64,000 nucleotides of DNA. Source: Lingula anatina. Its lineage: Eukaryota > Animalia > Brachiopoda. Under the pieces are notes generated by a model. It searched no databases and had not been told where the DNA came from. It worked only from the letters and a program-made list of their open reading frames with translations. Numbering within the stretch: the first letter of the stretch is position 1; every line of letters begins with the position of its first letter. The stretch covers positions 18,786,001-18,850,000 of the forward strand of contig CM120640.1 in the NCBI GenBank assembly GCA_051362555.1. The letters are read 5' to 3'. The translations under genes and the position numbers were made by a program. This document shows, in pieces, positions 27,951 through 38,776 of this stretch.

Positions 27951-29626
27951 CCCATCCTAAGAGGCCCTACTTCGGAGGTCAGAAAATACATATTTTTCGC
28001 GCACAGAAGGTATGAATTTTGATCAGTAGTCTGGATATGGAAAAGTTTTTTTTTGTGTGTGTTTGTTAAACAGCTAAACTTTTTCACAATTTCTGCTACA
28101 CAGGACTCAACCAAAAAAATCCCTCTGTGCCGGATCATTACCGGCATTTCCGTGGTGGTGAAACATCTGCTTCATTAAAAAGTTGGCACGTTAACATAAG
28201 GCCAAGCGCAAATGAAAAAGTAATGCGTAGATTGTGGGTTCTCTTTGACGGCCGTTTAGAATTGAATGGTTTTTAAGCCCAAAATATCTTTTTTATGGCA
28301 AAAATATAAGTAAAATACATAGGAACAGGAACTTGTGATAAAAAATGTTGTTATGATTGCTTGAATGGTCAGATGAGGTGTGTTGTCATCGTAACATGCG
28401 TGTTCATGATACAAGCCTTTTCTCTGCAAATTAGAATTGCGTGTAGACAGGGAGGTAACCAGGACGATACACCTGCATGGACCAAGATAAATACCTGTCG
28501 GAAAAGTTCATCAGAGTTCAGTAATTTGATCTCACAAAGGAAATTCCTGGAGTAAAAACAACTTGGTAAAGTTTAAAGCATTTGCTTGAGGTATTTTGGT
28601 TGGCAGCCAGTATTGCTAAGAAATCTCTGAAGATGAATGAGTCATATTGCCAAATCCACCTTTGCCTCCTAGAAACTAATTCAAACAGGAGCACGGGCTT
28701 ATTTATTTAGAAACTGTGGTTTTAAACTGACTTTTCATCTCTTAGTACGGTTATGTTACAATCTGAAGCAGACGCAGAACTAACAAAAATGAAGCTTTTA
28801 GAGGTGTGTATCTCAGAGGTCAGTTGTGATTCACTCCCAACTGTGTAATGTAGGTAAATATGTTCATAAGACACCAGATGCCTGAAGCAATAAGCATCCG
28901 AAATGCTATTTATAGGTGAGAAATTGCACCGCTTAATGATACTCGGAAATAACGTGTTATTTTTATACAGGGTGCCGTCTGAGAGAACTTTTTTTATGTT
29001 TTTGTAAACGCAACTCGATGTTCTAGCAATTTGCAACAGCGTACTTCGGGAGTAAAAAATACCTTTTATTGAATATTTTTTACCAATAAGTCATACTAAT
29101 TTCAATTTTAGTTTGTTTTGTAGTCTTCTTAAGAGTTATAAGAGTCTTTATAAGTTATCTATGATGCTCTCTGACATTCACGGGATTTAACAATTGTTTT
29201 AATAAATTTTAGGGAAGGAACCCGACTGTGGACTGTCAACTGTCTGGCAACCGCGGATAGCCTACCTTAAACAACGTAACAAGCTCTAAGCTGTCACGGA
29301 AGTTAAACAGAAGGATAACTCATCAAGCTGGCGTTATTAGATCGAAGAGCGGCCAAGTAAGCCCTCAAAGACACCCAGCGCATGCATTTGAAGCCAATAC
29401 GTCATTAAAACCATCTGATCACGTGCCTTTCCCGTGGTTCCTTGTTCAGTTCTGACAGATTGTTTCTGTTGGGATCTTTTTTCTGTTGGACCCTTACCAA
29501 ACAATACAGTGAGGTAATAGGATTATATGAAATTCGATGTCCTATTCTAAGACCTGTCTATGACCTACTGTATACTTCAGCCTTCCATCACTATCATCGC
29601 CATCACATGCTCCACTGGATTAAAAC

Positions 29627-32419
29627 ATGACTGAAACTTCACCGTACCGAGACAGGTAGGTTTCGGTGGAGTACAACGCAAGTCCCTTTAGAACTGCTGT
29701 GAACATATACAAACTGTCACATCATCTTACCTATCTAACCCTTTTCTGTGACACTGAAACCTTTTCTAGAATCCTAGATATCTAGAACTGTTACCTAAAT
29801 AATATAAATATATATATATATATCCCTTTCGTAGTTACACGCTGTTACGTATATGTATGCCATATAGTTGTACATCTTGCGTGTGGGATTAATGGATGGC
29901 GATGGTACTGTTGGCGTTACCTTCGACATCCAGGTACCTTCTTTATCTAGCACAGTGTAAGTAGTCTGAAGGTAACACGTCGGTTTTGAGTGCTTCGTGT
30001 AAAGGTACACTTTGCTAAGCTGGCTGAGGCATGGATGGCATGCAAGGCCCAGCAGGACGTGGTCAAAAGAGTTTTTACTGGCTATTTTTTCCATAACACT
30101 CAAATAAAGCGTGTTGCATGCGCACATTGGCGATGACTTGCACTTTTCTGCTCTTATTTAGGTACAAATCCAAGCAACTGCTCCTATTCCCGTATTCATT
30201 CTGAGTGGGTCCTTTAGTATCTGCGTGGTCTAATGCATGTGCTGGGCTGTCGACTCTTTTAATTGCAGTATTATATGACAAAAAGCAAATGCCTCAAACG
30301 TTTGAAGTACATGCACAAGATTTCAATTTTTATGCACAAAGTTTGTTTGAGTTGATAGTGGACATTGTGTACGAGATATTTTAACTGCATGAATAACCAT
30401 AAATCATAACATGACAGTAATATCAGGTAATATTTTTGGCTTAAATAAAAGTAAATAATGAAAACATGAACTGAAACTTTTCATATATTTTACATGCACG
30501 AATAAAAAACTCGTATACACAGACAAATAATTTGAAAAATTAACTTGATTACCTAAGTGGGTATGACTATAGTTCCTTAAGGTGGTAAATCATATATATA
30601 TATAACCAAGCATGTTATTATCATTTTCAGACTGGGCCTTGGGAGCAACGATTCAGATCGGCCTAGTCCCGATCGCAGGTCGTACCGCTCCCGCAGGTAC
30701 ACAGTAGGCATCTCTCCCAGTGACATCGAAAAGTCGGACAGCCCAGAGCCCACAAAAGAGTACACCCCCATCCTGATGGCGAACTCTGCAGGAAAACTAG
30801 CTCAGGAAATCAACGAGGAGTTTCTGACGTGTAAAATATGTCTAGAAACGTACAAAGAACCAAAAAGTCTCAACTGCTTGCACACATTTTGCGAGTCATG
30901 TATCGAGAACCATGCCATGTCAGAAAGTTCGTACAAGAAGTACAGCGAGTACAGAGATTTTACATGCCCTCTGTGTCGTAAAAGGACCCATCTTCCGACA
31001 GGTGGGGTAAAAGCGCTTCCAGACAACTTCCTGGTTGCTAGCCTGACAGAAGTCATCACACGCCAAAAGCCTACAAAGTTTCCTTTTTGCGATATCTGTA
31101 AACTAGTGGCCAAGAAACATAGGGAAGCGAGCTCAAAGTGTTTAGACTGTGCCAAATTGTTGTGTAAGCAGTGTGTTGAGGTTCACAGAGAAACCAAGGT
31201 CACTAAAAACCACAGTATTTTCGACGTGGAAATCGAAAAGGATGTGGAGTGCAAAGATCACCCTGAAGAAGTGGTGCGTTTCTACTGTGAGCCTTGCGAG
31301 ACGTGCGTCTGTGTGCTGTGCACCTTCAATGAGCACAAGGATCACGACATCTCCAACTTTAGCGATGCCGTCATGACGTACAAAGACTCCATTCAGAAAC
31401 TTCTGAACGGGTGCAAGGACAAGCTGGACAAACACGAACAGCAACTGGACACCCTCGCAAAAGCAGACAAGTCTCTGAAGCAGGCGGAACAGAAGATCAG
31501 AGATGTCTCCATCCAGTTCATTTCAGAAATCAGAACCCGAGAGAAACAGCTTATAGAAGAGCTACACAACCTATACGGGCCAGCCCTTATGGAGTTCATC
31601 CATCGCAAGGCAGACATGCAAATCACACTGGAAGGTCTCAAGAGCACGTGTAATCTCACCGAGCTCATTCTCAAAGGTAAGGATATTGAGCTTCTGCTGC
31701 TGAAAAATCAAGTACAGGAAAAGTTGCGAAATTTATCTGATCTTGACCTCAAGCCGTTGCCACCAACTGTAGGAAAGCAGGTGCAGTTCGTGCCAGGAGC
31801 CCTAGATATGGGATACATACAAGATATGGATCGCCCCTTGTCCATGTCGAAAATCAGAGCCAGGAGAGCCTTCTCCTCAAGTTCAAGCACCGAGTATCGA
31901 GACATGCAGGAACAGCCAGAAGTCCGCACCACTGACACGCAGACAGATTCTTCCATCACATCGGCTTCCAACTGCGAAAAGACAACCATGACCGACAAAC
32001 CGAACACCAACGACAAAAACTGTGCCACCGTGCCGCCGACCGTCATCACCGTGGGACTTCAAACGGATGTTCCTTCACCAGAAAATACTTCAGCTAACGT
32101 CGTTGACGTGACGGTCAATCTGATCCCCGACACCGAGGAGTCATCTCTCGTTCAAGAGTCTCGGGAAGAACGGGAACGGCGCAGACGCCAGGCTAGACGC
32201 ATGCGCGAAGAGAACGGCGAACAGGAAGACGAGGAAGACAGTCGTGTAACCAGACGACAGAGAAGACGGCGTATGAATCGGGCCAGCAATGAAGGCGACA
32301 GTTTTGAGAGCAACCGCAAGTCACGAGAGTTCACATCTCCCCCTCCACCTTTCAGGCGTGTGGAGCGTCAGAGCCAGGTCTATCATGGTGACAGCTTAGA
32401 AGACAACTCCAGCCCATGA
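29627..32419 (+). CDS. Tripartite-motif (RBCC) E3 ubiquitin ligase with a TRIM2/3/45/56-type N-terminus and no C-terminal NHL, filamin or SPRY domain
   Basis: ORF 30776-32419 contains a RING (CKIC...CLHTFCESC...CPLC), B-box1 (CDIC...CLDCAKLLCKQCVEVH), B-box2 (CKDH...FYCEPCETCVCVLC...HKDH) and a coiled coil. The frame stays open back to the acceptor TTTTCAG|30631. An upstream mini-exon, ATG 29627-29655 (MTETSPYRD, phase 2, AG|GTAGG), joins in frame, giving about 605 aa. Confidence 0.88.
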
Positions 32420-33699
32420 CAGGAGGCGCCACCGTCTCCGACGGACGCTACTGGTGCGTCTGAGAAGAAAAAGAATAGAGAAAAATGTACGGTTTCTTGA
32501 CTGCCATCACGATAGCATCTAACTCTGACGCCGCACATGTTTGATAGCAGTGTCTTCGAGGCACCAAGAGTCGCTGTTGATGTAGACCGACCCGATCTCA
32601 ACCGATCCGATGCAATTTCCTCCTTCTAGTTTCAAACATATCAAAATCAAATAGATCAGAGAAAAGAACAGACCCCGCGTCGTCTTTAGTTTACCAAGTG
32701 AAACGAAGGCAAGTTATGAGTGAAACGTACCCGAAAGCGCATACTAGAGGGACCTTACGATCCAAAGAAAAAAGCACCAGCTGCAGTGTCAGTGACGGTG
32801 ATTCAACTGACCCCACATACTTTTACCTAGCGAACCACGCTAGCCCTCTTCATTTGAAGAGATTTTATATATGTTTGTGTATCTAAACCCAAGTTAGAAG
32901 GAGAAGGCGTAACCTAAAATACCTCACAGATATGATGATATACAGAATGCTATTATATGTATATATTAAGTCACAGAATATGATATTTAGTAGAATGTTA
33001 ATTAAGGACCTAGTGGCTATGTGAGATATTTTGGGATATGCTTTATATAGTATTAAGAAAATTGTATTCGGTATACTATGAACAGAAAATTATATATAGA
33101 TTTATGTGTATACGTCAGAGAAGGCGTAGTTTATATATTTACACGTAATTGTGCCTATGGTACAGTATTGAGCAATGATATTATCTTATTTCAGATTCGT
33201 TCAATTAAATTCAAGTAAATGCCAACGAACCAAACAGGTGCTTTTTACAATGAGTGCGTATTAGTAACTGTATAATAATAATTGTATGTGACCAATAATC
33301 CAATTAGTAATGACAAGTAAATTCTTTATAATTAGTTGGTACACCCAAGCTTGATTACTACACCTAGAAATGTCTCGCTTTGGTAACATTTTCATGCAGC
33401 TATATTTGGTTTCACGGTGCAAATAAAGATATATAAAGGTAGACGTAAAATTAGTATTGATATTTGCAATTGAGAATCAAATAAACAAATAGATGAATTA
33501 TCTATCAGTTGTCTTTCATTGTTTTGCAGATTGGAAATAATATGATTAATACATCATTATGAAAAGGGCCTTGCCAACACTTATCCATGTTTTTTAAATT
33601 ATAAAGATGCCAGTACGACTGTTCAAGTAACTGGATTATGTCTTTCTCTAGATTTAAGGAGAGACGACTTATATCTGATAAAAGTTGATATGTGTAGTA

Positions 33700-34530
33700 G
33701 TGTTATTCATATTGACAATATTTAAAACTTCAATTTCTACACAATTAGTTGAGAGCTTTCGTCCCAACACTTGTGTTACGTAAAGAACTGAACTGTGTGA
33801 ATGATGCATTGAAAAGATGTCACTATCCAGACTAGGCAATTAGTAAAGTCTCCAACAGTTTCCTAGAACCCACAGACCCAGATTGACCTTAGAATAAGAC
33901 CTCTCACGAACATCCAGAGGTCAAAGGGAGGGGCTCGATAGTTGTTCCTAATGTGAGGGGTAGGTCTGAACAACTGAGGCGCATATTCAAAAAGCACAAA
34001 GTCAACGTCAGCTTTAAACCACATCAGACGCTGAAGGATCCGGAAATGCTTTGGCACCCTGAGGATGAAACTGACAAAAAGGACATCAGCGGGCCCATAT
34101 ACAAAATTCCATGCAAAGGACATGACGGCAGTGGGTGCAACCAAACATACATTGGTGAGACTGAGAGGTCTTTAAAGGCACCGAAGACCTAGTTGTTCCA
34201 ACCCATCTGAGGTTTCTCGACACATCAGTGTTGAGGCACCTGAACACAACATCAGTTGGGACAATGTGGAGGTCTTAGACCTCGACCCATTGTGGTTCAA
34301 TCGAGGGGTGAAGGAAACCATATACTAAACAAGGACGGGTGAGACACAACCTGTCTCACCCCTGGGACAGTGTTATATTGAACAGTTCTCACTAAACTGC
34401 GCACTATACACTGTCCTGCAACTTCAGTGTGACTGATGAAGTCCCAAGTGTTAGGACGAAAGCTCTCAGGTACGCTTTCAGCTTATTGTGTAGAAATTGT
34501 TTTAATTTATCATTTAATATGAAGACGACA
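33700..34530 (+). mobile_element. Decayed 3' fragment of a Penelope-like retroelement (GIY-YIG endonuclease plus pLTR), with an inverted partial pLTR copy at its 5' side
   Basis: Broken frames read VPNVRGRSEQLRRIFKKHKVNVSFKP...GPIYKIPC...CNQTYIGETERSLK / HRRPS...HNISWDNVEVLD...WFNRGVKETIY / LNKDG, typical of the Penelope-like RT thumb, linker and GIY-YIG region, with deletions and frameshifts. A hammerhead motif follows. Positions 33700-33773 are a reverse-complement copy of the 34445-34530 segment. Confidence 0.88.
34430..34468 (+). ncRNA. Minimal type I hammerhead ribozyme of the Penelope pLTR type
   Basis: TGA-CTGATGA-A-GTCC(caagtgtta)GGAC-GAAA-GC-TC-TCA: both catalytic boxes, helix II GTCC/GGAC, a palindromic AGCT mini-helix III, a cleavage site after C34465 and a 3-bp helix I TGA/TCA. 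Confidence 0.82.
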
Positions 34531-35953
34531 TACTCGTTTCACTTTCCCTTTAAGGTTGGTATCACTTTACCAGAGATTATGACGCGGATTTGTTTAATTG
34601 TTTAGCGCTTGAGAAATATGAAATGGGTTAGAGAAACTGAATATTTAAGTTCTGCTTCCTCGTGGATACAGTGTCAACCCGGCTTTTCAAAGAGACCAGA
34701 TTTTGACACAGACACACACAGACAGACACACACACACGCAAAAAAAAGAAAAAAAAAAGAAAAAAAAATAATAATAATAAATAAAAAATGGTATTTTTTT
34801 CCTGATCCTTGTTTCTGAATTGCATTTTAAAACCCACGCTCAGTGGTATAGCGCTCAATAACCACACCGTCGCATCAATCTCATCTATCACATTTGTGAC
34901 CCTAGTTTGGTAACTTGCACACTTTGGTACAGGACAGGGCTAACCAAACAACCAAAGGTTTAGGGGCAGTTGGGTGAAGGTGTCGCACTTAGGTGATTCT
35001 TTCACGCTTTTTAAGAGAACAATTGAGTAATTGACCGAACATATAAAAAGAATACCTCGTGCGGTTTCAGAGAGAGCACAAAAAACCGCCAGTAAAATGC
35101 AGGCGCATGACCGACACCTTTCGATTCTCCAAAGGTTATCAATAGTAGTTTTTAAATACTTTCTTCGCAGATCAATGTATTCGCTCTTGTAAAGCATTTT
35201 GTGGGTGTATGTCAACGATCTGATCAATTCACTTGAGAGTACATGGAAGACGACGTGTATTTCGCAATGCATGGCGAAACATAAAAGCACATGAGCTGAT
35301 CTCATAGAACAGCTACATCGCAAATACCTGTGCCTCACTTGACATATACAACATGGCCTCAAAATACAACCAATGACACCATTTGCTTGAACTAGTGCGA
35401 GCAATAAGGCTTCACCTGATTTTGATTCGTATACATTTGCTCAATTCAAATATCTATCGTATCGTATCGAATGATGCATACCTTATGTACTTTATCAAAG
35501 TTGCTGACTTTGATCAAAAGAAGGACTTCATTTGTGCAGAAAAAAAAGTCACATATCGTTAGTCAAAGTTCTTCAAACATGAAACAAGGACTTTCTTAGT
35601 GTGATGTAACAGGTGACGCAGCTATAAAAGGCCATAAGAAAACACGACTTTACAATGAAATTGTTATAAAATCAATAGCCCCTATCGAAATTCCAATTTA
35701 ACTCTGCACACTTCAGTAACTAAACAAGTGGTCTTCCAATACATCGATAAGCAAGCGTCGGTTTTGCTTTGATCGGAGTCGTTTAAAATGTCGAAATTAT
35801 CGAACACACCAGTTGCATGATACGTTATGCTCTCTGTGTAAACGTCGTATAAACAAAATACCAAATAGGGAGATTGGAAAGCGACTTTACAAGGAGGACT
35901 AGTCGTTCACGCTTTTCTTAGCCGCCACAGAGATACATCCACCGTTGGGCAAA

Positions 35954-38776
35954 ATGGCACAAAAACCTGTTAAGCCATCTGATTCGCTGGAAAGGCCTAG
36001 CCTTGAAGCACTCCAAAAGGTCAATGAGGACTTCATAGAAGCTGTGGTGATGGAAAAGGACCAAAAATGCACACGAATCCTTAGGGACAATGTATTATGG
36101 GCTAAAGAAATATGTGAGATGGAGAATAAGTTTGGGCTGCGACCGCTCCATGCCGCTGCGGCTAAAGGAATTACGTCGATAGTAGAGGTAAGTATGGCTA
36201 GCTCTGGTAATAATTGCAGATTGCAAAAAACATCTGCTTCACTTTATCTCATCCATCACCTTGTGTTTCAGAGAGGTAAAAGTGATTCCTCGACCCAGCA
36301 CACATTCTAATGCCCTTTTCAACCATTGGAAAAGGCGCACATGTGCGTGTACATATGTGCTGCAGAGTTTCAAATACATTATGAAACTTTTGCTAATACA
36401 AATGCCATATGTTTGTTTGTTGCTGTTCTATATTTTATCATATGGCATACAAACAAGGTACAAAGCTGTTGCGATGGATGACTGAGAGGCAAACAAACGA
36501 TATTTTTGTTTTACATTTCTTATCACAGTGGTCTGAATTGACCTTGAAATGCAACAGTGCTTAGGTTGATAGGTTTTGGAGAGAACTTCAAAGATCAGGC
36601 ATTAAACTCCATATGGTCTGGTGGGAATCAATTCAGAAAGATCATGCGTTTTACCTGAATGTTAATTTCCCTATTAAGAGTGCGTATGTGATAGACTATT
36701 GTTCATTAAAGATCCCCCGCCGTCACCAGCAAATGCAATAATTGATTTTTCTTTCTTTTGTTCAAATAACTGCTGCTCCCTTTACAACTGTATGCGAAAA
36801 CTGAACAGAAGCGTCGACACCTTTTACTTGCGTATTATATACCTTTTCGACGCACAAAGCTGGGAGTGGTTATGCTAGGCAGGAGGATCCCAAAGCAGAA
36901 GTCACGTTTCACTGTCACATTTTACCAGTTTCAGAGCAAAGTATAAAAACTGATGACTTATGATCTTACAAGTGTTGTAGAATGTTACAGGATGAACACA
37001 AAGGCTTTATCAAAATGGTTTCTTTGTAGGAAATAGTCAACACAGGGGCAGACGTGAACCTGAGGTTAACGAAGAATGTAAAGAAACGCCTAGGAGAACG
37101 CGTGGATGTGTTTCCAGCCGGTTGTTCTGCACTGCACCAAGCCTGCAAGTTCGGCCATCTTGACTCGGCCAAGCTTCTCGTCTCCAAAGGAGCAGATGTT
37201 AATATTGTAGACGAGGAGAACAAGTCACCGATTCATGAGGCTGCTTGGCAAGTAGGTTAAATGTTACAGGCAGACAGCTTGATTAAGGCACTCTCGCATC
37301 TAGCGTATAGCACGAACGTATGAGAAAAATTGCCCATTTGCAGACAAACGCAATGGGTTCGTTGGAGTTACGCCGTATACGCCTCGAGTACGCAGGCAAA
37401 AGTTGGTGTGCGTTTGCATACGCCGGTTCTAAAACAATTGCATACGCTGCTTATATCTTTTATCATTTTAATACGCTGATACGGTGATTTCCTACGTTTA
37501 AAGTTGTGCGCATAATCGATGTCACTATACGTATCTGTTTACGCTAGGTGTGACAGAGCCTTTAGCAGATGACTGTTTTGTTTCATAATAGTTTTTCAAA
37601 CACTTTCGATTGTTTCGATCCGTTAAGTTGTACCTATTCTCAAGTATCTTTAACATTTATCCACACGAAAAATAGGGCCTACTGACAGTTGATGAACTTG
37701 CGCACCAAAGAGCGCACATTTTTTAAAACATCATGAGGACACGTCAATGTTTACAAACCAAATCCCAAACAAAATCAAATAAATATAGTTATGAAAAATA
37801 GTTATACATATAGGCCTATTTTCAAAGAAATCCTCATCAATATAAGATTCGTTGCAGGGTCACGCCAATGTGGTGCAGCTTTTGGTAGACAACGGGGCTA
37901 ATGTCAACCTCCAGGACAAATACCTGCAGAGTCCTCTCCACAAGGCCTCAGAGAATGGGCGTACCGACTGCAGCCGCATTCTGCTGGACAGCGGAGCCGA
38001 CATAGATGCAGTCAACAATTTCGGTCGTAGCTCCATGCAGGAGTGTGCCCAGTCGTACTTAGACACGACCCCAGTGTTTACTATGCTAGTGGAGAGGGGG
38101 GCCAAGGTGGAGCATCGAGATCAAAAAGGTTAGTTAATCCTATGAATTTGGTTAGTGAACTTTTGTGCGAAATAAGCAGTTTTTAGCGCCTTAACTAGTT
38201 TTGCTTTTACAGAATAAAAATTATCCGGACAATTTTATAAATTGACTCTTATATTCAATCGGTAAAGGGGGCAATTTCATTTTCTTTTAATGAAAGAATT
38301 TTTTATATAATTGTATTTCAGGTACTACTGCACTCCACTTTGTTGCCAGACACGGGCAAAAACAGCGAGCAGAAGTTTTACTTAAACACGGAGCAGACGT
38401 CAACGTCAGGAAAAACAGCGGAAAGACTCCCATGCACGAGGCAGCACGAAGCGGTCACTCCAGCATGATTAGATACCTCCATAACAATGGTGGAGACGTT
38501 AATATCCAGGACCATCCTGGATGGTCGCCGCTCCATCTAGCGGCGCAAGAAGGAAACACGCAGGCTGCAGAAGTCCTCATCGAGTTGGGGGCAAATGTTA
38601 ACGCCGTAGACGCCAGCGGATACACCCCACTTCATTTAGCAGTTCAGAAGAATAAAGTTGGCACTACGAAATTGCTCGTGGGTAAAGGCGCAGACCTGAC
38701 TATTAAGGACAAAGAAGAAAATGTCCCTAAATATTATGCCAAATCAGACGATTTGCTTAAAATTCTGAACAAGTAA
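35954..38776 (+). CDS. Ankyrin-repeat protein of about 393 aa, consisting almost entirely of ANK repeats
   Basis: Phase-consistent exons 35954-36187, 37030-37251, 37858-38128, 38322-38776. Repeated motifs: GLRPLHAAAAKG, SALHQACKFGH, SPIHEAAWQGH, SPLHKASENGR, TALHFVARHG, TPMHEAARSGH, SPLHLAAQEG, TPLHLAVQKN, with GADVN linkers. AATAAA at ~39233. Confidence 0.88.
37286..37561. mobile_element. PIF/Harbinger-type MITE in ankyrin gene intron 2
   Basis: Imperfect TIRs: AGGCACTCTCGCATCTAGCGTA versus reverse-complement AGGCTCTGTCACACCTAGCGTA. TTA flanks both sides (37283-37285 and 37562-37564), the 3-bp TWA target-site duplication typical of Harbinger/Tourist elements. About 276 bp, non-coding. Confidence 0.78.

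Follow-up and report, generated by a model that had tools for sequence, protein, structure and literature searches.

The 64,000-nucleotide stretch of the Lingula anatina genome analyzed here (contig CM120640.1 of assembly GCA_051362555.1, positions 18,786,001 to 18,850,000, hereafter the window) contains a gene for a TRIM protein, a predicted E3 ubiquitin ligase, whose reading frame stays open for 26 codons beyond its TGA stop codon and ends there in a CaaX box, a predicted farnesylation signal. We propose that low-level readthrough of this stop may yield a minor, membrane-anchored isoform of the protein. The features of the locus, numbered by their positions in the window and supported in part by the RNA runs X17 and X20, are listed below.

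29327..29356 (+), 3' end of the main upstream exon, joined to 30631; loose-end consensus before 30631 in 555 reads (X17) and 55 reads (X20), mapped here
29627..29655 (+), alternative upstream coding exon piece of the annotated 605-aa isoform; tblastn of protein P0121, GT..AG joint in 20 + 2 reads
30631..33486 (+), large last exon with the entire RING/B-box coding region, both stops and the 3' untranslated region (UTR); continuous RNA depth, no internal joint
30776..32416 (+), TRIM open reading frame (ORF), 547 aa, ending DNSSP; RING at aa 19-67, B-box-like region at 104-147, B-box at 157-193
32417..32422 (+), first stop with its context, TGA-CAG; stop TGA at 32417-32419
32420..32497 (+), 26-codon in-frame extension, the candidate readthrough tail; read from the sequence
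32422..32462 (+), predicted RNA structure, two 7-bp hairpins or an alternative stem at 32426-32457; significance varies with the folding window
32465..32485 (+), basic patch KKKNREK, K/R at 5 of 7 residues
32486..32497 (+), CaaX box CTVS; prenylation-positive in yeast screens and with 4 of 4 predictors
32498..32503 (+), second stop, TGA-CTG, a UGA-CU context

The TRIM gene and the frame behind its stop

The RING of the ORF precedes its B-boxes, which is the TRIM/RBCC order, and the Pfam families zf-RING_UBOX, zf-C3HC4 and zf-B_box all match above cut-off, with the first B-box below it. C-terminal to the B-boxes lies a low-complexity region with an Arg-rich run, and a Pfam search of the ORF (9 families found) gave no match to filamin, NHL or SPRY. 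The TRIM2/3 and TRIM45 subfamilies carry C-terminal filamin and/or NHL domains. From the RING domain we infer ubiquitin ligase activity, and from the sequence together with PF25287 marks on some relatives a coiled coil after the B-boxes. Lophotrochozoan RBCC proteins named TRIM2-, TRIM45- or TRIM56-like share the RING and B-boxes with the Lingula protein, at 55-70% identity over the N-terminal 65-80%; their names are automatic NCBI ones and, without filamin or NHL, the vertebrate names are only labels of resemblance. These orthologues occur in molluscs, annelids, nemerteans and bryozoans and have several alternative C-termini.

Four RNA runs were mapped on 29500-34500, and two of them gave coverage, about 1010x at the stop in X17 and about 130x in X20; a joint was listed from at least 3 reads upward, possibly with a 2% share. 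A single exon of the Lingula gene contains the complete coding core together with both stops, and the only joints listed in X17 and X20 are 5' ones. The exon runs from 30631 to about 33480, with RNA molecules ending at 33441-33486 and an AATAAA at 33422. All three members of the 90% protein cluster, one of them the Lingula anatina protein that NCBI names TRIM56-like, stop at the first stop (DNSSP), and no annotated Lingula isoform bearing the tail was found.

The extension that follows the first stop reads QEAPPSPTDATGASEKKKNREKCTVS and is closed by the TGA at 32498-32500. The TGA-C stop, the 26 open codons, the second TGA and the succession of KKKNREK and CTVS are all present as a first-pass annotation of the window had described them. 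That annotation also took the end of the tail for a CaaX and polybasic anchor signal, and this has held up: CTVS belongs to the prenylation-positive motifs compiled from yeast screens with Ras61 and Ydj1, and all four predictors score it as positive (PMC9231725), and KKKNREK upstream provides a candidate second membrane signal. Farnesyltransferase acceptance of CTVS is a yeast result, not a brachiopod one, and by its sequence the tail is a good anchor signal with predicted farnesylation. Anchors of the K-Ras4B type consist of a CaaX box and a polybasic stretch. Like K-Ras4B, the Lingula tail has a farnesyl-type CaaX (X = Ser) after basic residues; its patch is shorter (5 basic residues of 7, with one Glu) and would be present on a conditional isoform only.

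The first stop does not appear to be an accident of this genome copy. At 32417-32419 no letter other than TGA is listed in the X20 RNA or in the DNA contig X10, and both stops are unchanged over 32270-32670 in these two runs, which are both diverged from the window. Contigs from two other organisms, X11 and X12, gave no alignment at 80%, which is not taken to mean that the sequence is absent there. Furthermore, the end position, D..SP(x)-stop, is common to 8 orthologues picked for this ending (a close relative, a chiton, an abalone, bivalves and others). Because these orthologues end at the same position, their sequences indicate that the first stop is an old family stop and not a new nonsense change; together with the unchanged TGA in diverged RNA and DNA, this largely refutes a nonsense allele or assembly error.

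Within the 78-nt extension the diverged runs show 3 differences, of which two are synonymous (one inside CTVS) and one is a Pro-to-Leu change in the linker. The tail is free of indels, whereas the 170 nt that follow contain two (a loss of 8 nt and a gain of 2 nt), and no stop is gained. In the TRIM ORF, 21 of the 28 listed differences are synonymous. The direction of the tail differences fits coding use, with a count too small to carry weight. Separately, the X20 RNA has partial A>G differences at 32364, 32376 and 32521 (7-28% of reads) that are missing from the X10 contig; two of them alter an amino acid, and they are either alleles in the pool or A-to-I editing.

A nested hairpin had been proposed just 3' of the stop. 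It can form, but accounts for 0.06% of the ensemble of 32420-32463, in which tandem 7-bp hairpins (32422-32439 and 32442-32462) make up 79%; the two hairpins are also the lowest-energy fold of the first 44-51 nt (z -2.3 to -2.9). When the first 6 nt, which a ribosome on the stop would cover, are omitted, the inner part of the nested stem becomes the energy minimum (-14.9 kcal/mol; z -1.5 to -1.7). The z-scores run from -2.6 to +0.4 over the 9 folding windows of one series, and from -2.9 to +0.4 over all windows folded; they lie near 0 in longer ones, and a C>T difference at 32439 is compatible with both folds. A downstream RNA structure is possible as a prediction, with the proposed stem not its dominant form.

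CaaX ends and TGA-C stops among the orthologues

Relatives of at least 400 residues (n=289) have Cys at position -4 in 18 cases, corresponding to 8 of 161 distinct C-termini; one such end, CRLK, is not CaaX-like and the remaining ones are typical. Annotated isoforms end SCVIA in Mytilus, DCVVA in Patella, KKKNCLLQ in Octopus, KKCNLA in Mya, KCVLE in Dreissena and CKCC in Tubulanus, and several of these ends (e.g. Mytilus, Mya, Dreissena, Octopus) come after an Arg-rich run at the same point. At two genomic loci of orthologues, L001 and L005, matching CaaX mini-exons lie downstream of the main stop, in phase 0 and behind strong T-rich acceptors. Judged by these sequences, molluscs (mussels, clams, octopus) encode the CaaX end on a spliced terminal exon. 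Orthologues that splice on an anchor show the need for an anchor independently, which makes this gene a strong case in which to test lipid anchoring under the control of readthrough, and also the targeting of an E3 ligase to membranes.

Protein searches added little to this set. The readthrough tail region matched only the gene itself, a search of 50%-representative proteins returned one weak match, to the upstream part, and a search with the C-terminal half of P0002, the closest relative (86 matches), gave no new CaaX-ended protein among 14 new ids. A separate CaaX mini-exon was also sought in Lingula: the 5 other stops with Cys at -4 in 32420-36000 include none judged to lie behind a good acceptor, and for the one of them at 33239, X17 and X20 alike lack the stop owing to differences at 33251 and 33252.

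Some other ends of the family are of interest in their own right. An annelid-like orthologue (L003, 2217-2280) has a strong acceptor 39 nt past the stop, followed by 7 open codons that end CETA and may form a weak CaaX mini-exon, and L004 has a similar candidate ending CIRL. Nemertean and scallop isoforms (P0047, P0147, P0007 and other scallop isoforms) end in Cys and two residues (CVI, CMQ), possibly short prenylation motifs. At L007 (2213-2525) and L010 (2324-2852) a different frame stays open past the stop for as long as the contig runs, and the peptides it encodes are alike at the two loci, which suggests a conserved alternative exon or isoform overlapping the stop.

For a comparison of orthologous stops we started from the best 80 of 152 stretches, which gave 78 loci, with a C-terminal match in 28. 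Twelve (L012-L014, L020, L022, L023, L046, L052, L059, L060, L069 and L077) were dropped, as they ran off or their first stop may be intronic, and L006 and L017 were removed as duplicates, leaving 14 distinct loci with a true C-terminal stop and 15 with Lingula, the brachiopod DNA in this comparison. None of the 10 dropped loci that have a stop shows TGA-C or an anchor, and a scan of genome contigs for further orthologues yielded one partial locus. A TGA-C stop is present at 4 of the 15 loci (Lingula, L018, L011 and L025), and at each of these the frame continues past the stop to a terminal anchor, a CaaX box in Lingula and L018 and a hydrophobic helix in L011 and L025, vs 0 of the 11 other loci. 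Fisher's exact p is 0.0007, a value overstated by the relatedness of the four loci.

The stop of L018 reads TGA-CTA and is followed by 67 open codons that end KSCNLQ, then by two TAG stops. This tail is homologous to an out-of-frame CaaX segment of L016 that lies behind a strong acceptor (score 48, reached in 0 of 2000 shuffles; 36, p 0.015, without the last 4 residues). L011 has TGA-CTC and 45 codons, and L025, from the same second bryozoan paralogue, TGA-CAA and 37 codons. Both of their tails end hydrophobic, with a mean Kyte-Doolittle value of 2.8 over 19 residues; none of 864 flank segments scores 2.5 or more, 14 of the 7316 segments of the window do, and L005 reaches 1.98. The tails (L011 1641-1781, L025 6171-6287) resemble transmembrane anchors, and in both an ATG is the second codon after the stop, so that re-initiation, or a weak acceptor, is an alternative to readthrough at these two loci.

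In the tree, the two copies of Watersipora fall in one clade (support 100/100) with these loci, the first beside L016 and L018, the second beside L011 and L025. Lingula is sister to P0002 (99/97), and the tree does not settle how it relates to the bryozoan clade. Four-fold sites are saturated within both bryozoan pairs (28% identity; 27 of 98 identical between L011 and L025), and the shared TGA-C is therefore not simple inertia. As to the conservation that the first-pass annotation looked to orthologues for, TGA-C with an in-frame anchor recurs at three bryozoan-clade loci, and their tails do not align with the Lingula tail. One further record, L079 (2073-2510), is titled as a cyanobacterial genome bin, yet an exon of the animal TRIM gene lies in it, identical to L019 in length and match; this is probably host DNA in the bin.

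Readthrough weighed against chance, splicing and recoding

We put the probability that low-level functional readthrough yields a membrane-anchored minor isoform of the predicted E3 ligase at roughly two in three, and the CaaX tail is a real feature, probably with a function. In the mechanism we envisage, an mRNA with a UGA-C stop and an in-frame CaaX tail would be read through by a small share of ribosomes, the UGA being decoded by a near-cognate tRNA at perhaps 0.5-5%, possibly with the aid of the downstream hairpin. The near-cognate tRNAs for UGA are those for Trp, Cys or Arg. Two products would result, the main 547-residue soluble form and a 574-residue form that is predicted to be farnesylated, on the Cys of CTVS, and held at a membrane with KKKNREK as the second signal. 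TRIM proteins dimerize through their coiled coil, and by such dimerization the minor anchored form could recruit the soluble form too. The central claim of the first-pass annotation, a readthrough-added farnesyl anchor on a TRIM, is supported in part: the stop is genuine, neither of two RNA runs shows a splice route to the tail, and orthologous TGA-C stops have in-frame anchors. The hairpin is not supported as the dominant fold. More broadly, we lean slightly toward an ancient soluble-versus-membrane switch in this TRIM family that was rewired between phyla: molluscs would splice on a CaaX exon, a brachiopod and a bryozoan would reach a CaaX box by reading through UGA-C, and in bryozoans the duplicated copy would gain a transmembrane tail anchor, likewise by reading through UGA-C.

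A number of observations weigh against readthrough as the route. The stop context was expected to be leaky, and UGA-C is indeed present, but UGA-CA is weaker than UGA-CU(A), and the Lingula stop lies outside the high-readthrough UGA-CU(A)(G) class. The second stop is also UGA-C, so some CaaX ends would be buried; its readthrough (32498-32515) would append a few residues and hide the box. The two synonymous changes of three in the tail are not significant (P 0.17, for a neutral synonymous share of 26%), and the excess of Cys at -4 in the family is modest, at 8 of 161 distinct ends vs 6 at -1 and 5 at -3. No CaaX isoform is listed for abalones, oysters, scallops, several snails, a chiton, Watersipora or Owenia. 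Within the bryozoan clade, L016/L017 is a counter-example, having TAA-C with its CaaX segment out of frame. No significant alignment is obtained between the tails of Lingula and L018 (p 0.17) or between those of L011 and L025 (p 0.20). L018 is a single contig with a fair acceptor within its extension, in the same phase as that of L016, and splicing alone could therefore serve it; L011 and L025 each carry a weak YAG|G, and L011 has a frame slip upstream of the stop. Finally, readthrough, prenylation and membrane location are all predicted from sequence, and the programmed switch of the first-pass annotation is a candidate.

The alternative that survives best, though we hold it unlikely, is that the tail is not usefully translated and represents 3' UTR that spells a CaaX box by chance, or the decaying relic of an ancestral CaaX exon. 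In line with this, the GC content of the tail (0.51) is about that of the next 126 nt of UTR (0.52), one of its three differences is the Pro-to-Leu change, it has no significant likeness to any orthologue tail, and its structure z-scores fall to near zero in longer folding windows. Among 7316 stop-to-stop segments in the six frames of the window, 221 have Cys at -4, 15 end in a strict CaaX box, and one, which is this extension, has a CaaX box with at least 4 K/R in the preceding 8 residues; Markov simulations give a strict CaaX with basic patch at 1e-5 to 3e-5 per stop, under criteria set post hoc with the sequence already known. A loose definition, namely any prenylatable Cxxx (20-33% of Cxxx, PMC9231725) multiplied by TGA-C at 6.4%, allows about 12-19 such genes by chance in an assumed 30,000-gene genome, and for this reason the sequence on its own is suggestive of anchor use and does not decide. 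Set against chance are the rarity of CaaX and basic patch together, about 1e-5 per stop, within a family that uses CaaX ends, and the repetition of TGA-C with an in-frame anchor at three other loci where synonymous sites are saturated.

Somewhat less probable again is a functional tail that is reached by splicing, as in molluscs, from a donor inside the large exon to the CAG at 32420-32422 in an unsampled tissue or stage. Splicing is the route to the CaaX end in mussels, clams and octopus and probably at L016, a phase-0 CAG stands directly after the Lingula stop, a weak donor-like CAG|GT lies 45 nt upstream, and the splice evidence rests on the two RNA runs, of four, that have coverage. In those runs no joint or left-out stretch was found near 32423, and in X20 and X10 over 32270-32670 there is no joint, and no left-out stretch before 32545. 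The candidate acceptor, TGACAG|GAG, which the first-pass annotation had offered as a second way to the tail, has 2 T in its 20-nt tract and two internal AGs, vs 8-11 T in acceptors that are used in Lingula or strong in relatives, and the annotated Lingula isoforms lack the tail; this route was not borne out. Splicing alone would also leave unexplained why TGA-C and the frame are kept at four loci, for which a splice-only model gives a chance of about 0.006-0.02 per locus. Recoding of the UGA in another way (A-to-I editing to Trp, or selenocysteine) is very improbable, and so is the reading that a gene otherwise ending in CaaX carries a nonsense allele or an assembly error here. The partial A>G differences around the stop in X20, three in all, might speak for editing, but no letter other than TGA is listed at 32417-32419 in X20 or X10; the end position is the same in orthologues, and selenocysteine insertion was rejected on an Rfam search of 32300-33600 that gave no SECIS or other match at gathering level and one unrelated, chance-level match at E up to 10.

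Relation to known systems

The closest parallel to readthrough into a C-terminal targeting signal is cryptic peroxisomal targeting, in which fungal glycolytic enzymes and human LDHB and MDH1 gain their signal by readthrough or splicing (Stiebler et al. 2014, PMC4207609; Schueren et al. 2014, PMC4359377; Freitag et al. 2012, as cited in these papers), with UGA-CUA as the consensus for high readthrough (PMC4207609, PMC4359377). As in the TRIM case, the signal lies behind a UGA-C stop, and as in the TRIM family, orthologues described there use readthrough in some species and splicing in others. L018 shares the UGA-CUA motif, whereas Lingula differs with UGA-CAG. The TRIM is not a member of that class: its signal is a CaaX box (a hydrophobic tail in the paralogue) and not PTS1, its host is a predicted E3 ligase and not a metabolic enzyme, and the TRIM case is known from sequence. 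If true, the family switch proposed above would be the lipid-anchor counterpart of cryptic peroxisomal targeting, on a ubiquitin ligase.

Readthrough extensions with a predicted prenylation signal have been described for Drosophila Syx17 (Dunn et al. 2013, PMC3840789) and Arabidopsis MT1C (bioRxiv 10.1101/2021.11.09.467898). Both resemble the Lingula TRIM in ending, once extended, in a predicted farnesylation signal; they differ in belonging to other protein families and in having ribosome-profiling support for readthrough, prenylation being given as a prediction, and the available text of these reports holds no cross-phylum comparison of splicing and readthrough of the kind the TRIM family allows. 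The novelty claimed in the first-pass annotation accordingly stands for a TRIM and is too wide for prenylation generally: a literature search, with subscription journals outside its scope, found no report of this gene or of readthrough-added prenylation on a TRIM. What is new is one gene family that gains its anchor by splicing or by predicted readthrough. Abundant readthrough was reported only in Pancrustacea by Jungreis et al. 2016 (PMC5100048), the available text of which does not mention mollusc, Lottia, Capitella or brachiopod. Functional readthrough would, if the proposal is true, be added for brachiopods and bryozoans, and annotation pipelines miss such readthrough isoforms altogether.

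Two further observations concern the expression and the 5' end of the TRIM gene. Two polyA RNA runs with the same species label, X14 and X15, have 17 and 4 reads on the gene vs more than 1000x in X17, and expression may be strongly tissue- or stage-specific. The main 5' exon (29328-29356 joined to 30631-30775) is without an in-frame ATG. It has an in-frame CTG at 29328-29330 whose context is strong, with A at -3 and G at +4; this CTG aligns with the start Met of P0002 and is followed by a similar peptide, and a CUG-initiated N-terminal extension of about 58 residues is a possible second recoding signal of this gene.

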